From Escherichia coli (GTDB taxonomy: Bacteria > Pseudomonadota > Gammaproteobacteria > Enterobacterales > Enterobacteriaceae), in the NCBI RefSeq assembly GCF_003334385.1, contig NZ_QOWN01000076.1: a DNA stretch of 6,564 nt. One strand, given 5' to 3'. Position 1 is the first letter of the stretch. Every line of letters starts with the position of its first letter. Below, one piece after another: positions 1 to 6,225 of this stretch. Below the pieces are notes generated by a model that was not told the DNA's origin, ran no database searches, and saw only the letters and a program-made list of their open reading frames with translations. The position numbers and the translations under genes were made by a program.

Positions 1-242
1 AACGCGAGGCATCGTCTTAACGAGGCACCGAGGCGTCGCATTCTTCAGATGGTTCAACCCTTAAGTTAGCGCTTATGGGACACACAGATTCATTTTGTCT
101 TTCTTCAGCAGCAAAATACACTGCGGTTATTATTTAACCATTAAATCAACAAAAAATTTTACCTCATATTGATTTGACTGCTATTTTTGCTATTAATAGC
201 CAGAATTGCAGTGCTTTTATATCTGTGTATAGTGAGGTTACT

Positions 243-1727
243 ATGTCATTCGGTCAGCCTTGTGATGAGTTTCCCCTGAGTTCGCTGCCTCCACTCATTC
301 GTGATGCCGTTATTGAAGCTCAGCAAATTACGCAGGCTCCCCTTGGGCTTGTGGCAGCGTCTGCCCTGGGCGCTGTTTCACTTGTCTGCCAGAATCTGAT
401 TGATGTCTGCAGACTGAATACACTGCGGGGGCCGGTCTCTCTTTTTTTCCTGACGCTTGCCGAGTCCGGAGAACGAAAAACCGCAGTGGACAAATTATTA
501 ATGAAGCCCCTGTACCAGCAGGAGATGCAGTTATATTCCAGATACAAAAGTGAACTGGCTGTCTGGAAAAACAAGGAAGAGCTTTTAAAGGCTCAGAAAA
601 AAGCATTGTTGTCAAAACTGAATAAAGAACTCCGCAAAGGCGCGGATGAGTCAGAAACCCTCAGACAACTGGAAGTACTTCAGAAAAACAGTGCGGAAGA
701 ACCTGTGAGGTATAAATTCATTTTTAATGATGCCACGACTGCGGCAATTAAGAATCAGCTTTGTGGTAAATGGCGTTCAGTTGGTATTATGTCAGATGAA
801 GCCGGTATTATATTTGATGGATATACCCTGTCTGAGTTGCCTTTTATTAACAAAATGTGGGATGGCTCTGTATTGTCTGTGGACAGAAAGAATGAACCCG
901 AACAGATGATTGAAAATGCCAGAATGACGTTATCCCTCATGGTGCAACCCGGTCTTTTTGACCGATATATGGAGCGAAAAGGTTCTGTTGCCAGGGACAG
1001 TGGTTTTCTTGCCCGTTGTCTTATCAGTAAACCTGCAACCACGCAGGGGAAACGCTTTATTAACGGAGCTGTGATTCCGGGAGGATCATTAACGGCATTT
1101 CATGAACGATTAATGGAACTGGCCAGAGGCAGTATTGAAAAATCCAGTGAGGATGAACGGTATTGTCTGCATTTTTCGCCTGAAGCGCAAAAAATATTTA
1201 TTGAGCACTATAATGTTCTGGAGCAGGATTTATCCCCTTCCGGACCCTTAAGCCCGTTTCGGGGACATGTTTCAAAAAAAACAGAAAACATTGCAAGAAT
1301 TGCAGCGTTATTTCAGTATTTCAGCTATGGTGAAGGGAAAATCTCTGCCGATATCATGACGTCTGCTGTCGTAATAAGTTCGTGGTACACAGATGAATAT
1401 AAAAAATTATTTGCGTTACCTGATGAATCTGAACTGCAGCAGAAGGACGCCGAGGAGCTGTTCGACTGGCTCATTGAGGAGTGCCGCGGAGAATGCCCGC
1501 CCCGTGTCAGGAAAAATTATATTCTCCAGTGTGGCCCGGGCCGGTTCAGAAACAGGAAAAAACTGAACGCATTGCTGAACATTCTTGAATCTCAGTTCAG
1601 GCTTTCTGTCGTGCCGGAAGGAAAAACCATGTATGTTCTGCTTCCCCAGATAGCCAGTTTAAAGTTGTCTGATGTCTCTGGTATTTTTACCTCGGGTTAT
1701 CACTACAATAAGCTGAGAGCGAAGTAA
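243..1727 (+). CDS. DUF3987-domain protein, YfjI-like (family associated with replication/primase modules of integrative elements and satellites)
   Basis: Long ORF 174..1727 in the track. TTG at 174 has no Shine-Dalgarno; ATG at 243 is preceded by GAGG (234..237) with a 5-nt spacer, so 243 is the preferred start (494 aa). The N-terminus reads EFPLSSLPPLIRDAVIEAQQITQAPLGLVAASALGAVSL, which matches my recollection of the DUF3987 N-terminal signature (F-P-x-x-x-L-P-x-x-L-R-D ... Q-x-P ... small-residue helix). No overlapping ORF is comparably long. Family assignment is from memory, not a search. Confidence 0.7.
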   Translation: MSFGQPCDEFPLSSLPPLIRDAVIEAQQITQAPLGLVAASALGAVSLVCQNLIDVCRLNTLRGPVSLFFLTLAESGERKTAVDKLLMKPLYQQEMQLYSRYKSELAVWKNKEELLKAQKKALLSKLNKELRKGADESETLRQLEVLQKNSAEEPVRYKFIFNDATTAAIKNQLCGKWRSVGIMSDEAGIIFDGYTLSELPFINKMWDGSVLSVDRKNEPEQMIENARMTLSLMVQPGLFDRYMERKGSVARDSGFLARCLISKPATTQGKRFINGAVIPGGSLTAFHERLMELARGSIEKSSEDERYCLHFSPEAQKIFIEHYNVLEQDLSPSGPLSPFRGHVSKKTENIARIAALFQYFSYGEGKISADIMTSAVVISSWYTDEYKKLFALPDESELQQKDAEELFDWLIEECRGECPPRVRKNYILQCGPGRFRNRKKLNALLNILESQFRLSVVPEGKTMYVLLPQIASLKLSDVSGIFTSGYHYNKLRAK

Positions 1728-2745: not shown

Positions 2746-2952
2746 TTACGGACGGGACTGTGCAATACGCGCCTGCAGCCAGGCTTCCACTTCACTTTTC
2801 AGCCAGCGGGAGCTGCGCTCCATTTTGATGGGGGCAGGAAAGCCCCCATCTTTGATGAGTTTGTAAAACCACTTATCGGTTAAGCCGGTAAGTTGAGTGA
2901 TAAACGCCATGTCGACCATCTGGTCATCCATCAGCGAAACAGGGGTAGCCAT
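2746..2952 (-). CDS. alpA: AlpA-family (phage/integrative-element) transcriptional regulator / excisionase-like HTH protein, 68 aa
   Basis: The C-terminal 68 aa of ORF 2746..3186 read MATPVSLMDDQMVDMAFITQLTGLTDKWFYKLIKDGGFPAPIKMERSSRWLKSEVEAWLQARIAQSRP. The ATG at 2950..2952 (complement) is preceded by GGAGG (complement of about 2960..2964). The small size, helix-turn-helix-like core and the motif W-x-x-S-E-V-E-A-W-L resemble the E. coli AlpA C-terminus (W-I-E-A-E-I-D-E-W-L) as I recall it. The 78-codon upstream extension is Pro/Arg/Ser-rich and not protein-like. Confidence 0.75.
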   Translation of the reverse strand: MATPVSLMDDQMVDMAFITQLTGLTDKWFYKLIKDGGFPAPIKMERSSRWLKSEVEAWLQARIAQSRP

Positions 2953-3238
2953 GAGAATGTTCCTCCGGATGTTGTTAAACCAGCCGGTGTGGTCATGAAA
3001 ACAGCGCGCCACCTTCACTGGCATAACAACCGGGGAGAAACGTAAAAAATAATCGGGAATGTGGCTGTCCGGAGATAAACGGGGGGGATTGCGATGGCAG
3101 AGCCGTAGCGGAATCCCGGGTGGTTGTTGCGAAAAGATGCTTCCGCACGCACGCGCGATAAAGGAGGGAGGACTTTCGTGAGACAAGGGGAAAACTAGCG
3201 TTCTGATAATTGCAGAGTTGTTTTCGGAGGTGGTTACA

Positions 3239-3358
3239 GTGAGTCAGCCCGTTCCTGGCGAGGAGGAGACTGATATCACCGATGGGATAAGGCTGTCTGA
3301 TTGGTATTATAAATATAAGAAGTCATCAGAGAGTAACGTAAAGGATTTGCCAGAGTAA
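3239..3358 (+). CDS. Candidate small ORF (39 aa, MSQPVPGEEETDITDGIRLSDWYYKYKKSSESNVKDLPE), divergent from alpA; speculative
   Basis: GTG at 3239 with GGAGG (3226..3230) 8 nt upstream, in-frame stop TAA at 3356..3358. It is below the ORF-track size cutoff. No homology is recognised, and a short ORF next to a good SD can arise by chance. Confidence 0.2.
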   Translation: MSQPVPGEEETDITDGIRLSDWYYKYKKSSESNVKDLPE

Positions 3359-3399
3359 GCTAAGAGAGTAAATCTCTCCGGTAACAGAGCGCTGTGAAT

Positions 3400-3431
3400 C
3401 GTTCATGTATCAGAGTGCAAATACATGAACG
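3400..3431. repeat. 11-bp inverted repeat (CGTTCATGTAT / ATACATGAACG) with 10-nt spacer; candidate operator or RNA hairpin
   Basis: Read directly: 3400..3410 and 3421..3431 are exact reverse complements. There is no adjacent T-run on either strand. The arm sequence ATACATGAAC recurs at 4156..4165. Confidence 0.8.
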
Positions 3432-4155
3432 CTGATGCGTAAAATCAGCAGTGACACGCCAGCTCCCCCTGTGCCCATTCCTGTATAAGACATGAACTGA
3501 GCGTATTAATGCTCCTGCTCTGAGACTGAGCCGGTGAGTGAGGGGCTGAGAAATCCCTCTTGACACAGCTCTAAACCAGAAATACTTCCCCGGTTGTTGC
3601 GGTGCGTCCGGATCCCCGATAACGGAACACTAAGGCTGTATTGCGGGACACCGGGTAAGTGGCAGCCTGTAATGTGTTCTGTCAACGCCAGAAAAAATGA
3701 TTTTTCACACGCGTTATAGACTCACTCCTGTGGACCTGGAAGCCCGTAACTCTGCGGTTGCCCACCGACTGACGGAACTGACCGCAAACTTTACGATCGT
3801 GTTCCTGCTTCCTTCTGGTCACCTGAACTTTTAGCCAGCGCTACGATAAGTCCGGTGTTATCTGCACCGGAGGACCGGGAACATTAAGCGGTATAGCGAC
3901 AACAAAGAATTCGAAATCAAAAGGGAATGGTGCCGGAGGCGTGGGCGGTAATAGGCTGATTTTCAGGTATTACCGGCTTACAACGTGTGGTTGATATTGA
4001 GGGGCTGTGAGTTTCGCGTATTTGTCAGAAACCCAGATGAGTTTTCCTTTATGGGACGAAATAAGGCAGCGGCAATACCTGGAAAAATTTAATATGGTAT
4101 GAAGGAGAACCTGTCGGTTACGCTTAATATACACGGTACACTGTCAGCTCAGGGG

Positions 4156-4165
4156 ATACATGAAC
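4156..4165. repeat. Additional direct copy of the 10-mer ATACATGAAC (same as 3421..3430), just downstream of the zinc-ribbon gene stop
   Basis: Exact 10-mer match read from the sequence. A related 8-mer ACATGAAC is at 3490..3497. Chance recurrence of a given 10-mer in 6.5 kb is unlikely but not negligible. Confidence 0.5.
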
Positions 4166-4172
4166 CGTTATC

Positions 4173-4373
4173 TCACCAGCTACACAGTATACACACACTG
4201 ACGCTGACAGTAGTCAGCAGGACCACAATAATCAGCGCCAGCAGTATGGTAACGATACGGTCTGTATTCCGGTAGTAGCCGAAGGGGTCGACAGAACCAC
4301 AATACGGGCAACACACTGTATTATGAGTAATCGCGTTTCCACAGTCCCTGCACTTCTTTTTGCGTATCACCAT
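4173..4373 (-). CDS. Small zinc-ribbon protein with C-terminal transmembrane helix (66 aa)
   Basis: ORF 4173..4376 on the minus strand. The preferred start is the ATG at 4371..4373 (complement), with GAGGAGGGAG immediately upstream (AGGAGG about 5 nt before the ATG). The protein has two CxxC-type pairs (CRDCG ... CCPYCG) followed by a hydrophobic stretch IVTILLALIIVVLLTTVSVSVCILC. It is divergent from the YagK-like gene across a 200-bp AT-rich intergenic region. Confidence 0.5.
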   Translation of the reverse strand: MVIRKKKCRDCGNAITHNTVCCPYCGSVDPFGYYRNTDRIVTILLALIIVVLLTTVSVSVCILCSW

Positions 4374-4545
4374 CACTCCCTCCTCACAGCCTTACCCGTA
4401 ACCGATTTTTTACATTAAAAAAACAACGCTGAAAATTCAACCGTCAGTCCGGAGACGACCGTTCGGGTTATCACAGAGTGCCTGAGACAGTGTCCTGCCG
4501 GAGGTCACCTCAGGGGCTCTGCGCATTTTTTACGACGTGGTTATT

Positions 4546-4562
4546 CCGTATGAACCATACGG
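4546..4562. promoter_or_regulatory. 17-bp perfect palindrome CCGTATGAACCATACGG overlapping the Shine-Dalgarno of the YagK/YfjJ-like gene
   Basis: Read directly: 4546..4552 (CCGTATG) and 4556..4562 (CATACGG) are reverse complements with a 3-nt centre. The right arm overlaps GGAG (4561..4564), which is the SD for the ATG at 4573. It could be a dimeric-regulator site or an RNA hairpin occluding the RBS. Confidence 0.4.
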
Positions 4563-4572
4563 AGATTTAACC

Positions 4573-5142
4573 ATGACCTACAAATACAACCCCTTCTGGC
4601 AGCAACGTATTCGTGAGACGGTGCGGCACGCACTGAATGTTCATCCCCGCCTGACGGCATTGCGGGTTGACCTGCGTCTCCCGGATGTACCGGCAGCAAC
4701 GGACGCAGCTGTGATATCCCGCTTCATCAATGCCCTGAAAGCCCGAATCGACGCTTACCAGAAACGTAAGCATCGGGAAGGTAAACGCGTGCATCCCACA
4801 ACCCTGCATTACGTCTGGGCCCGGGAGTTTGGGGAGTGCAAAGGTAAAAAACACTATCACCTGATGCTGCTGGTCAACCGGGATACCTGGTGTCGTGCCG
4901 GTGATTACCGCGCTCCGGAGTCTCTGGCCGGGATGATTAAACAGGCGTGGTGCAGTGCCCTGGGAGTGGATGTCGGGTGCCATGCCACGCTGGTGCATTT
5001 TCCGGCCTGGCCGGCGGTGTGGCTGGCGCGTAATGATGACACCGGCTTTCAGCAAGTGCTGGAACGTGCTGACTATCTGGCGAAGGAGCATACCAAAGCT
5101 CACTGCACCGGTGAGCGCAATTTTGGCTGTAGCCGGAGTTGA
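4573..5142 (+). CDS. YagK/YfjJ-family (inovirus Gp2-like) protein with HUH-like and YxxK-like motifs, 189 aa
   Basis: ORF 4537..5142 begins with GTG; the ATG at 4573 has GGAG (4561..4564) 8 nt upstream, so 4573 is preferred. The N-terminus YKYNPFWQQRIRETVRHALNVHPRLTALRVDLRLP matches my recollection of the YagK/YfjJ family. HYH followed by LMLLVN (HYH at 4852..4860) is an HUH-type motif, and YLAK lies near the C-terminus. The long antisense ORF 4567..5436 is rejected as GC-driven. Confidence 0.7.
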   Translation: MTYKYNPFWQQRIRETVRHALNVHPRLTALRVDLRLPDVPAATDAAVISRFINALKARIDAYQKRKHREGKRVHPTTLHYVWAREFGECKGKKHYHLMLLVNRDTWCRAGDYRAPESLAGMIKQAWCSALGVDVGCHATLVHFPAWPAVWLARNDDTGFQQVLERADYLAKEHTKAHCTGERNFGCSRS

Positions 5143-5219
5143 GCACGACTGGCGCGCCAATATCCGGCAAACCAAAAGTATGGGTTGTTGTCTGGCGGCA
5201 ACGATGTATCCACTCGCCC

Positions 5220-5243
5220 ACTGACTGTTTTTTACGTCAGTGT
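5220..5243 (+). other. Possible hairpin (CACTGAC / GTCAGTG, 7-bp stem, 10-nt T-rich loop) in the intergenic region after the YagK-like gene
   Basis: Read directly. The T-run is inside the loop rather than after the stem, so terminator function is uncertain. Confidence 0.25.
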
Positions 5244-5395
5244 TCCATTGTGTGACAACCACAGTGCTGTAACAGCAACCAGCCTGCTTTACCCAAACTC
5301 CAGTCCAGATTTTAACTGAACCGCCATTCACACCCTGACCACGCTGCCCGTACCGGGACGGCTGTTGCCTGCGTGTCGTCTGGCGGCTGAGGTAT

Positions 5396-5803
5396 ATGAC
5401 TATGTACGCAAAATCCTTTATCGCTCTTGATGGCAACGGACGTCTGACGGGCGCCCGTACTGCACAGGCCGCACCTTATGCTAACTACACCTGCCACTTG
5501 TGTGGCAGTGCACTCAGATACCATCCGCAATACGAAACTGAACTTCCCTGGTTTGAACACACTGACGACAGGCTGACAGAGCACGGTCAACAGTGCCCTT
5601 ATGTCAGGCCGGAGCGCAGAGAAATACAGTTGATTAAACGTCTGCAGCAATTCGTACCGGATGCCTTACCCGTGGTGCGTAAAGCCAGCTGGCACTGCAG
5701 ACAATGTCACCACGATTATTATGGGGAGCAGTACTGCACACACTGCCAGACCGGAGGATTCAGTATTCCCCGGACAACTCAGGAGGAAATATGCGAATTC
5801 TGA
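5396..5803 (+). CDS. Cys-rich putative zinc-binding protein, paralog A (135 aa), unrecognised family
   Basis: ORF 5396..5803. GAGG (5389..5392) precedes the ATG at 5396 by 3 nt and the ATG at 5402 by 9 nt, so the start is one of the two. It contains CHLCG ... PWFEH ... W-H-C-R-Q-C-H-H-D-Y-Y-G-E-Q-Y-C-T-H-C-Q-T-G, and aligns along its length with the downstream protein. Confidence 0.6.
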   Translation: MTMYAKSFIALDGNGRLTGARTAQAAPYANYTCHLCGSALRYHPQYETELPWFEHTDDRLTEHGQQCPYVRPERREIQLIKRLQQFVPDALPVVRKASWHCRQCHHDYYGEQYCTHCQTGGFSIPRTTQEEICEF

Positions 5804-6225
5804 ACTGTTATATGGCGAATGACAGCAAAGGCCATTTTGTTACGGCGAAAGAAGCTGCGAAGCACAACCGACAGGACGTTTTGTGCTGTGTGTCCTGTGG
5901 ATGCCCGTTAACACTTCAGCGGGGCAATGACGGACAACCACCGTGGTTTGAACATGACCAGATGACTGTCGCTGAAAAAATCCTGCTGCGATGTACCTGG
6001 CTTGACCCGGCAGAGAAAGAGGCCCGTCGTTTGCATCTGCAGGGCATGACGGTTCCGGATTATACGGTGAAGGTGAGAAAGTGGTTTTGTGTGATGTGTG
6101 ACGAAGATTATGAGGGGGAAAAGTGCTGCCCACGCTGCGGTACCGGGGTATACAGCAGGGCGTGGGGGCGGCAGGAGGTGCCGTCGGAAGATGCCAGGGC
6201 TGATAATCCGTTACAGAGGCTGTAA
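5791..6225 (+). CDS. Cys-rich putative zinc-binding protein, paralog B (144 aa), translationally coupled to paralog A
   Basis: The ATG at 5791 has a strong AGGAGG (5781..5786) 4 nt upstream and overlaps the last 13 nt of paralog A (stop 5801..5803). The ORF-track start at 5704 is an unsupported extension. It contains CCVSCGC ... PPWFEH ... W-F-C-V-M-C-D-E-D-Y-E-G-E-K-C-C-P-R-C-G-T-G. Confidence 0.6.
   Translation: MRILNCYMANDSKGHFVTAKEAAKHNRQDVLCCVSCGCPLTLQRGNDGQPPWFEHDQMTVAEKILLRCTWLDPAEKEARRLHLQGMTVPDYTVKVRKWFCVMCDEDYEGEKCCPRCGTGVYSRAWGRQEVPSEDARADNPLQRL

Follow-up and report, generated by a model that had tools for sequence, protein, structure and literature searches.

A YagK/YfjJ-family protein of an Escherichia coli island is a predicted Rep-class HUH endonuclease

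The gene and its island neighbourhood

We analysed a window of 6,564 nucleotides from Escherichia coli (contig NZ_QOWN01000076.1, assembly GCF_003334385.1), in which a YagK/YfjJ-family gene is accompanied by the following genes and upstream elements:

174..1727, plus strand: YfjI-family DUF3987 protein, likely helicase partner, start codon uncertain (Pfam DUF3987, 1.8e-95)
2746..2952, minus strand: AlpA-type helix-turn-helix regulator/excisionase (PHROG excisionase/regulator families, 1.1e-8; HTH regulator in RefSeq)
4409..4436, plus strand: sigma-70-like promoter match, TTTACA, 16 nt spacer, GAAAAT (consensus scan, 9/12 matches)
4536..4575, plus strand: leader hairpin pairing the SD GGAG (4561-4564) and the ATG (4573); inner stem TCCGTATG/CATACGGA (4545-4563)
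4573..5142, plus strand: YagK/YfjJ-family gene, 189 aa, predicted Rep-class single-tyrosine HUH endonuclease, 'inovirus Gp2 family'
5402..5803, plus strand: first Cys-rich protein (Pfam DUF7828, 5.2e-31; Zn_ribbon_11, 8.4e-9)
5791..6225, plus strand: second Cys-rich paralogue, overlapping the first by 13 nt and in the same similarity cluster (RefSeq annotation mapped from locus L001)

Translation of 4573-5142 on the plus strand gives 189 aa and a stop codon, and in identical E. coli DNA RefSeq has a gene at these coordinates, whose product is named 'inovirus Gp2 family protein'. The ATG at 4573 is the RefSeq start, with GGAG at 4561-4564; an alternative GTG start at 4537 would yield 201 aa. 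The protein matches Pfam PF11726 (YagK_YfjJ_C) with an E-value of 4.8e-48 across residues 21-187, spanning model positions 1-170 of 170, and matches REP_ORF2-G2P with an E-value of 3.3e-5 over a stretch that takes in the HUH region. An NCBIfam search with the 189-aa protein returned no match. The gene is a further member of a family that already carries the label 'inovirus Gp2 family', and within PF11726 it belongs to a distinct 189-aa subfamily without the N-terminal extension of 10-40 residues that many members have.

The leader hairpin has a predicted RNA folding energy of -19.5 kcal/mol (z = -4.5) and occurs at the same place in nine orthologous loci, where the stem sequences are partly different. 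A covariance model (R1) found it once per locus, at this position only and in one subfamily only; it recovered the training copies alone and gave no second hairpin site of the kind expected for a transposon end or terminus. We therefore read the hairpin as a translational control element, which probably keeps translation low by covering the ribosome-binding site and start codon. The promoter evidence is weak, and such sites are no commoner in this region than in shuffled sequence. Searches for a nick site or origin gave none: the Rep_1/phiX-type CTTGATA does not occur, and the upstream k-mers common across subfamilies (21 sequence groups) are AT-rich words only. An Rfam scan of the whole window gave no match at E <= 1.

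The neighbouring genes place the protein within a recurrent island module. The YfjI gene product also matches phrog_2373 'DNA helicase' (3.2e-82), and 5'-3' helicase activity has been demonstrated elsewhere for a DUF3987 protein (PMC11724360). The family locus search was run with a narrower alignment, the diverse alignment having no usable conserved stretch. Of the 46 loci, 39 have an AlpA-like gene and 20 have YfjI no more than 6 kb from the Gp2 gene (YfjI being directly upstream in 11), and in 13 the first Cys-rich gene is downstream of the Gp2 gene on the same strand. The recurrent order in related islands is Int, AlpA, YfjI, Gp2; in this window YfjI is 2.8 kb from the Gp2-type gene and alpA is inverted. 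The Cys-rich pair that the first-pass annotation had placed downstream of the gene is real. Catalytically dead paralogues adjoin some copies of the family gene, and we looked for one after the zinc-ribbon genes in the window and found none. The E. coli island copy examined contains IS66 and other IS remnants and lacks an integrase within 12 kb, and it may therefore have lost its mobility.

Motifs, conservation and predicted fold

Four features of the 189-aa protein bear on its assignment:

4663..4683, plus strand: strand beta1 block R31-V-D33-L34-R-L-P37, at the Rep motif I position, non-canonical (not uuTu)
4825..4827, plus strand: E85 codon, candidate third metal ligand, at the end of strand beta2 and 8 residues before H94
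4843..4878, plus strand: Rep motif II, the HUH block G91-K-K-H94-Y95-H96-L-M-L-L-V-N102, on central strand 94-102 of the model (H94-H96 codons 4852-4860)
5068..5085, plus strand: Rep motif III (YxxK), A166-D-Y168-L-A-K171, at the end of helix 156-170 (Y168-K171 codons 5074-5085)

The first-pass annotation had pointed to an HYH followed by a hydrophobic run, and to a YxxK about 70 residues further on, as signs of a Rep-like HUH nuclease or initiator. Both are present in the translation, with 72 residues between H96 and Y168, the predicted nucleophile. In 200,000 composition-preserving shuffles of the 189-aa protein, an H-U-H followed by three hydrophobic residues arose in 2.2% and a YxxK in 34%, while 0.23% contained the two in this order; given these frequencies, the motif match in a single sequence is no more than suggestive.

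The decisive support for the motifs comes from their conservation across the family. We compared the protein with 125 diverse full-length representatives (30-48% identity), giving 126 sequences with the query. Across this set H94, H96 and E85 are invariant (126/126 each) and position 95 is always Tyr or Phe (126/126). Y168 and K171 are each present in 125 of 126 sequences, N102 in 124 and K175 in 123, so that the HYH and YxxK positions are near-invariant (at least 125/126). The same pattern is seen in an alignment of 64 members (A3). E85 is a candidate metal ligand by virtue of its invariance and of the predicted model, in which strand 79-85 hairpins with the HUH strand 94-102. Where Rep motif I (uuTu, such as FLTLT) would lie, the first strand reads L-R-V-D-L-R-L-P, without the Thr motif; R31, D33, L34 and P37 are conserved in at least 90% of sequences, and the block falls in strand 26-35 of the model. 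Motif I is not universal among HUH enzymes.

Profile searches tie the family to the Pf3-type, Rep_1, RepSA and P2 gene A Rep families. REP_ORF2-G2P is matched by 54 of the 64 aligned members (best 5.4e-10), with weak matches to Rep_1, RepSA and Phage_GPA among the 64; none of them matches a primase Pfam family.

The AF2 model of the 189-aa protein (pLDDT 85.8, pTM 0.85) has strands at residues 26-35, 79-85, 94-102, 148-152 and 181-186, and helices at 47-68, 118-130 and 156-170. As modelled, the protein would have the antiparallel-sheet α/β fold common to solved HUH nucleases, and the closest solved structures to the predicted fold are HUH Rep nucleases, with SIRV1 Rep ORF119 the top one. A BFVD structure search gave 112 matches at E <= 1e-3, of which the sole named ones are microvirus replication initiators. 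Foldseek against the PDB returned nothing at E <= 1e-3, and a sequence search against solved structures (with the single protein and two profiles) returned nothing useful, giving one unrelated match with an E-value of 0.26. The protein had also been thought far smaller than a full Rep, which does not make it unusual: the solved chains of SIRV1 Rep ORF119 and the RepB origin-binding domain have 116 and 131 residues, respectively.

Because the motifs are conserved, and the fold and profiles fit HUH Reps, the reading of the protein as a predicted Rep-like HUH nuclease or initiator stands, with neither unconserved motif positions nor a model lacking the HUH fold to set against it. We consider it very probable that the protein is an HUH-fold nicking enzyme, apparently catalytically intact. 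The motif reading is right and only moderately new; the family is very common in islands.

Relatives of the protein and rival readings

The family profile finds 930 representative clusters. Of 5,426 complete E. coli genomes, 3,741 (about two thirds) have sequences at least 80% identical to the protein, usually in two or more copies (median 2 per genome, always in island context). We found no YagK/YfjJ-type gene in bona fide phages by tblastn against 50,697 phage records, the sole match being an unverified 4.5-kb E. coli contig, which makes 'inovirus' a misleading label. Phage_CRI (Ff-type gpII) is absent at E <= 10 for the query and is not listed for the 64 aligned members.

Homologues are also found on small plasmids of 2.6-5.7 kb. 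The 2,626-bp circular Psychrobacter plasmid pA41H1 has no ORF of at least 80 aa other than the homologue (hhalign probability 99.2%, E = 9e-20). In four sister Psychrobacter plasmids a theta-type repM lies directly upstream of the Gp2-type gene, and pA41H1 retains a 49-nt repM remnant, so on these plasmids the Gp2-type protein need not be the vegetative initiator.

These plasmids bear on the main rival to a replication role, namely that the protein is a relaxase-like mobilisation protein whose HUH nicking at an origin of transfer lets the excised island or small plasmid pass, in single-stranded form, through the conjugation apparatus that a co-resident plasmid or ICE provides. If so, the island would be an integrative mobilisable element. 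A Gp2-type gene following a separate repM on the four Psychrobacter plasmids, and accompanied by its own initiator on pMPC6-4K, is the usual rep-plus-mob layout. The small plasmids are without a known relaxase, 22 of 27 being typed non-mobilizable, and 41 of the 68 plasmid records that match the window protein are conjugative. In classical HUH relaxases, however, the tyrosine reportedly comes before the His motif, the opposite of the order here, where HUH (94-96) precedes Tyr (168). No relaxase Pfam family is matched by the query or the 64 members, neither the window nor the loci showed a coupling protein or an oriT-like repeat, and the partner gene encodes a helicase tied to replication modules. 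HUH Rep_1 initiators can nonetheless act as relaxases, just as relaxases can drive replication of excised elements (PMC5714925). On balance we consider the relaxase-like role rather unlikely.

The remaining rivals are less probable still. Action on invading DNA, which the first-pass annotation had entertained, would make the protein a domesticated defence or interference nuclease that nicks the single-stranded or replicating DNA of invading phages and plasmids, not that of the island. Besides adhesins and toxin-antitoxin pairs, integrase/AlpA islands with this family encode restriction systems and defence functions; several loci contain type I restriction-modification genes, related island families carry defence systems, and the K-12 homologue yfjJ adjoins the AbpAB defence genes (PMC10732053). 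Set against this, PADLOC gave no match for the protein or its neighbours, the gene sits with integrase, AlpA and helicase genes in the conserved core of the islands and not among their variable cargo (PMC12595487, a preprint, and our own locus survey), and defence cargo is unlikely on plasmids of the size that carry homologues. Nothing we found supports action on invading DNA, and we give it little credence.

Very little credence attaches to a non-nuclease palm-domain partner of the DUF3987 helicase, either an AEP-like primase or an origin-binding protein that resembles an HUH enzyme. AEP primases and HUH nucleases have related core folds, and the first-ranked Foldseek match in the PDB is AsfvPrimPol, an AEP primase-polymerase (E = 3.8e-3). 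In addition, archaeo-eukaryotic primase domains are the usual fusion partners or neighbours of DUF3987 helicases (PMC5862659; PMC11724360). Yet the DxD metal motif is absent, beta1 reading R-V-D-L-R with D33 as its single conserved Asp; the residues that do not vary correspond exactly to those of HUH enzymes (E, H-U-H, YxxK); and the family profiles match an HUH Rep family and no primase. An AEP primase identity taken from the top Foldseek match is rejected on these motif and profile grounds. A Y1-type transposase, similar to IS200/IS605 TnpA or a REP-associated tyrosine transposase and moving a short hairpin-bounded segment, is hardly credible: neither the query nor the 64 members match Pfam Y1_Tnp, the single hairpin of each locus is without a second end, and the gene holds a fixed position within an integrase-borne island module, at a median of two copies per genome and always in island context.

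Proposed mechanism and comparison with known systems

Our best overall reading, on which our confidence is evenly divided, is that the protein is a stand-alone Rep-class HUH enzyme with one catalytic tyrosine, which nicks and rejoins DNA and initiates rolling-circle-type processing of the island once it is excised. By analogy with the family, E85, H94 and H96 would coordinate a divalent metal at the face of the central β-sheet, and Y168 on the following helix, aided by K171 and K175, would attack a phosphodiester in single-stranded or melted DNA. Cleavage would leave the protein on the 5' end through a phosphotyrosine and free a 3'-OH. The role in rolling-circle replication of the island is tentative and is suggested by gene context. 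After excision driven by integrase and AlpA, the circular island would be nicked, allowing host polymerase to begin rolling-circle (strand-displacement) copying while the island DUF3987 helicase YfjI unwinds the DNA; the strand would then be rejoined by the same tyrosine or by that of a second subunit. The helicase of larger Reps may thus be supplied here by YfjI, and the two proteins would in effect be a Rep split over two genes.

If the protein is an active nickase that works with YfjI, it would give a concrete mechanism for the multiplication or movement of the island after excision and extend the range of known HUH systems by a compact Rep made of two genes. If it is merely what the database label implies, the result is a correct, ordinary annotation. 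Single-tyrosine HUH domains of similar size serve as DNA-protein coupling tags, and a new HUH specificity could have practical use in this way. A bolder extension, which we regard as doubtful, is that the HUH nickase and YfjI replicate CP4-57-, CP4-6- and CP4-44-like islands, the most common class of tRNA-associated islands in enterobacteria, by rolling circle after AlpA-triggered excision, in which case so-called cryptic prophages would be active replicative satellites or mobilisable elements, with the dead paralogues as regulators or partners of the active enzyme.

The Rep of phage Pf3, ORF278 (motifs LTLT, HLH and YVSK), matches the same Pfam family as the window protein (PF23343, REP_ORF2-G2P). 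Both have an E...H-U-H-hydrophobic block followed by a W motif and the YxxK in the same order; E85 aligns with the E of 'WVIEW' in Pf3 Rep, whose YxxK is 'QYVSKH' and comes after the HUH, as in the 189-aa protein. Their pairwise similarity is not significant, and Pf3 Rep differs in its canonical LTLT motif I, its 50-residue HUH-to-Y spacing and a C-terminal extension of about 100 residues. At the place equivalent to the beta1 block, Pf3 Rep reads ALTLTV. ORF301 of Pf3, also considered as the phage Rep, was set aside as a Zot-like assembly ATPase that shows no similarity to the family. The nuclease domains of SIRV1 ORF119, parvovirus NS1 and AAV Rep are merely 10-13% identical to the 189-aa protein, which has an extra N-terminal helix and a longer HUH-to-Tyr insert. 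Parvoviral enzymes carry an SF3 helicase as a fused domain; in the island the helicase is a separate gene and of a different kind (DUF3987).

Integrative elements, once excised, are known to start replication at a relaxase or Rep nick (PMC5714925). ICEBs1, with NicK, and pSAM2, with RepSA, are integrase-borne and multiply in circular form after their excision, starting where the element-encoded Rep or relaxase has nicked the DNA (PMC5714925); NicK belongs to the Rep_trans family and is unrelated to the 189-aa protein, and the matches of our family to RepSA are weak. PICMI, phage satellites with int, alpA and DUF3987 genes, replicate in a rolling-circle-like manner after induction and form concatemers (PMC10803314). 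The island type described here shares these three genes with PICMI: alpA and DUF3987 in the window, and the full Int-AlpA-YfjI-Gp2 set in related loci (the examined copy having no integrase nearby). PICMI has no reported HUH gene. In E. coli K-12, yagK, yfjI and yfjJ are still listed as uncharacterised genes (PMC11551758). YagK of CP4-6, about 39% identical to the window protein, and YfjJ of CP4-57 resemble it in size, single-domain architecture and island context.

Motifs of the Gp2-type protein and their conservation

The Gp2-type gene (YagK/YfjJ family; 4573–5142, plus strand) is an ORF of 189 codons and a stop, and its translation contains the motifs as the first-pass annotation had written them, G91-K-K-H94-Y95-H96-L-M-L-L-V-N102 and A166-D-Y168-L-A-K171. 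A GTG at 4537 opens a longer alternative ORF; the ATG at 4573, with GGAG 8 nt upstream, is the RefSeq choice of start in identical E. coli DNA. Many E. coli chromosomes are 100% identical to the 901 nt spanning the gene (4400–5300), and sequences at least 80% identical to this query are found in 3,741 of 5,426 complete E. coli genomes (median two sites per genome, nearly all chromosomal), with the copies named 'inovirus Gp2 family protein' in RefSeq. Near-identical E. coli copies in a Gram-positive assembly, on a Paenibacillus tengchongensis contig (L014; 683 bp, coverage 0.59), and in a set of eukaryotic proteins (P0008, source 'eukprot') most likely stem from contaminated data.

In shuffles of the protein, HUH followed by hydrophobics arose in 2.2%, YxxK in 34% and both in order in 0.23%; the match in this single sequence is therefore no more than suggestive. 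Searching 1.84 billion representative proteins with a profile returned 930 clusters at E ≤ 1e-3; in the best 150 of these no protein exceeds 285 aa, and the full-length ones are mostly about 190–240 aa. We aligned 125 full-length representatives (30–48% identity to the query; counts include the query, n = 126). H94, H96 and E85 are present in 126/126, as is Y or F at position 95, followed by Y168 and K171 (125/126 each), N102 (124/126) and K175 (123/126). The proposed HYH and YxxK motif positions are kept across the representatives and the query, and in a 64-sequence MAFFT alignment the sole invariant columns are E85, H94, H96, W126, Y168 and K171. Because these motif residues are near-invariant in the family alignments, the proposal does not fail for want of conservation.

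Predicted fold and relation to known Reps

An AlphaFold2 model of the protein, built on a 26-sequence alignment, was confident, with a mean pLDDT of 85.8 and a pTM of 0.85. It comprises a helix (7–23), a strand (26–35), a helix (47–68) and two strands (79–85 and 94–102, the latter bearing the HUH motif), and after these a helix (118–130), a strand (148–152), a helix ending at Y168 (156–170) and a strand (181–186). In the predicted model, E85 closes the strand that forms a hairpin with the HUH strand, the same arrangement as that of the glutamate ligand of AAV Rep. Comparison with solved structures gave the highest score to SIRV1 Rep ORF119 (8.6), followed by parvovirus NS1 nuclease domains (7.6, 7.4, 7.2 and 6.7), AAV5 Rep (6.9), pMV158 RepB (6.6) and the Helitron transposase (6.5), with TnpA-REP (6.1) and then CRESS-virus Reps next down. 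The protein had been described as far smaller than a full Rep; however, 189 aa is not small for an HUH fold, the solved SIRV1 Rep chain having 116 residues. Foldseek against viral models produced 112 matches at E ≤ 1e-3, of which microvirus replication initiators were the only named ones.

Pfam assigned the protein to YagK_YfjJ_C (4.8e-48), with a partial match to the Pf3-type Rep family REP_ORF2-G2P (3.3e-5). When 64 aligned family members were scanned singly, 54 matched REP_ORF2-G2P at E ≤ 1e-3 (best 5.4e-10) and one matched Rep_1, with six further weak Rep_1 matches and weak matches to RepSA and Phage_GPA. The Pf3 homologue is ORF278 (Rep motifs ALTLTV, PHLHCAAFF and QYVSKH; REP_ORF2-G2P 1.7e-7); ORF301 was rejected as the counterpart, being a Zot-like ATPase. 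Using hhalign, the family W-x-R-E...H-Y-H...A-W block pairs with Pf3 W-V-I-E...H-L-H...S-W (E 1.4e-3). Direct pairwise similarity between the window protein and the Pf3 Rep is not significant, and tblastn against 50,697 phage records returned a single match, an unverified 4.5-kb E. coli contig; the name 'inovirus' therefore points to remote homology and not to an origin in phage.

Island context and leader hairpin

The features of the window are as follows.

174–1727, plus: YfjI, DUF3987 protein (DUF3987 1.8e-95)
2049–2666, minus: 205-aa ORF, same strand as alpA and downstream of it; RefSeq hypothetical, unmatched in NCBIfam, PHROGs and PADLOC
2746–2952, minus: AlpA-type regulator
About 2953–4172: 1.2 kb with no convincing gene; lies between alpA and the gene for the 66-aa protein
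4173–4376, minus: 66-aa zinc-ribbon membrane protein, divergent from the Gp2-type gene
4573–5142, plus: Gp2-type gene
5402–5803 and 5791–6225, plus: two Cys-rich paralogues (DUF7828 + Zn_ribbon_11), overlapping by 13 nt

The stretch 2953–4172, with no convincing ORF or Rfam match, could be a site of regulatory sequences or an origin; it holds a perfect inverted repeat of 11 nt around a 10-nt loop (3400–3410/3421–3431). The 66-aa protein begins with a CxxC...CxxC zinc ribbon and ends in a hydrophobic tail; its PHROG matches are weak and of unknown function, and its NCBIfam match, to a family of rubrerythrin-like domains, is weak and below the cut-off. The Cys-rich pair directly downstream of the Gp2-type gene has no PADLOC match, and this pair also comes after the gene in 13 of 46 related loci.

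These 46 loci come from other Enterobacterales, Aeromonas and marine Gammaproteobacteria. Within 6 kb of the Gp2-type gene, an AlpA-like gene is found in 39, YfjI in 20 (directly upstream on the same strand in 11) and an integrase in 10; zinc-ribbon genes occur in 13, and the recurring order is Int, AlpA, YfjI, Gp2. DUF3987 proteins were predicted to be replicative helicases of mobile elements (PMC5862659), and one is an ATP-dependent 5'-3' helicase, partner of a mobile element's replication enzyme (PMC11724360). PICMI, which are int-alpA-DUF3987 satellites, form rolling-circle-like concatemers once induced and require the DUF3987 gene (PMC10803314), and in Pseudomonas the genes listed as probably core to transducible intY-alpA islands include a Gp2-like one (PMC12595487, preprint).

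In many islands there is a second Gp2-type paralogue, and a conserved gene of roughly 200 aa often comes after it (L006:10091-10726, L008:10147-10695, L009:10156-10704, L012:2353-2901, L013:10102-10737, L022:5039-5773, L025:11329-11892, L003:10994-11560 and L024:4851-5375; L-numbers denote loci). With E85, both histidines and the YxxK tyrosine and lysine all replaced, the sequence of this paralogue looks like that of a catalytically dead copy beside an active one; the window itself has no such copy. In strain 2014C-4135 (L001), the region is flanked by Ag43 and a GTPase to one side, and by IS66, IS remnants and the fec operon to the other. No integrase lies within 12 kb, and the window copy may be stuck in an island that has decayed. 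IS66 (L001:14181-16340) lies just beyond the window's right end, after the zinc-ribbon pair, in the position taken in related islands by the dead paralogue and its partner gene, which suggests that the module in this strain was truncated by IS66 insertion.

RNA folding revealed a leader hairpin at 4536–4575 (−19.5 kcal/mol, z −4.5) that pairs the GGAG and ATG. It is preceded by a conserved TTTTTTAC (4526–4533), and its 3' arm holds the Shine-Dalgarno GGAG and, in the window copy, also the ATG. In nine orthologous loci (L005–L013) a hairpin is found at the equivalent position, with the conserved TTTTTTAC before it and a conserved TGAAC loop; the stems partly differ, with double changes in 3 of 10 consensus pairs, and a covariance model found the hairpin nowhere but at the leader position. 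The hairpin is probably a translational control element that would repress a potentially harmful nickase; less probably, it acts at the DNA level, as a recognition or nick site.

Plasmid-borne relatives and proposed role

Small plasmids carry distant but clear Gp2-type homologues. On the circular pA41H1 (L053; 2,626 bp), the Gp2-type gene is the only ORF of at least 80 aa, scanning across the circle origin included. Its product retains E..HYH and YLAK and matches the family profile (probability 99.2%, E 9e-20; PF11726 8.6e-14). There is no annotated initiator on pA46P2, the 5.5-kb Klebsiella pRHBSTW-00636_6 or pPGSB8459; pMPC6-4K has its own, and in four Psychrobacter plasmids (L002, L058, L059 and L060) a theta-type repM lies directly upstream of the Gp2-type gene. 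In pA41H1, 49 nt from the 3' end of repM are left, so this plasmid appears to have arisen by deletion. The plasmids connect the family with modules for replication or transfer, and do not separate 'initiator' from 'relaxase-like'.

The window protein has an intact HUH catalytic set and a predicted Rep-class fold, and is part of the island integrase/AlpA/helicase core. It is very probably an HUH nicking enzyme; that it initiates rolling-circle replication of the island is a tentative proposal, somewhat short of even odds. E85, H94 and H96 would bind metal, and Y168 would attack the excised circle on one strand, leaving a 5'-phosphotyrosine and a 3'-OH to serve as primer. YfjI would unwind the island DNA and the same or a partner tyrosine would rejoin the strand, the outcome being rolling-circle multiplication of the island, like that of excised ICEs (PMC5714925). 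Searches for CTTGATA and for k-mers in upstream regions found no nick site or origin. A relaxase-like role in mobilisation is rather unlikely, and the two roles are not exclusive, since Rep_1 initiators can double as relaxases (PMC5714925). A primase-like or non-catalytic protein is improbable, and the 64 aligned members had no Pfam match to primase families; use in defence and a role as a transposase are likewise of low probability.

The genes yagK, yfjI and yfjJ were still among the uncharacterised K-12 genes listed in 2024 (PMC11551758). Databases already record the Gp2-type family under its name, along with its distant link to a phage Rep, and its HUH-likeness would not surprise a specialist. 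Less appreciated are the strict conservation of the catalytic set, the pairing of the gene with a DUF3987 helicase in an island core that is extremely common, and the existence of dead paralogues and plasmid-borne relatives. In the window protein the HUH motif comes first and a single tyrosine later, which is the arrangement of Reps and Y1 transposases, whereas classical relaxases are permuted. Unlike canonical Reps, the family lacks the Thr-containing motif I and has a conserved R-x-D-L...P strand in its place.
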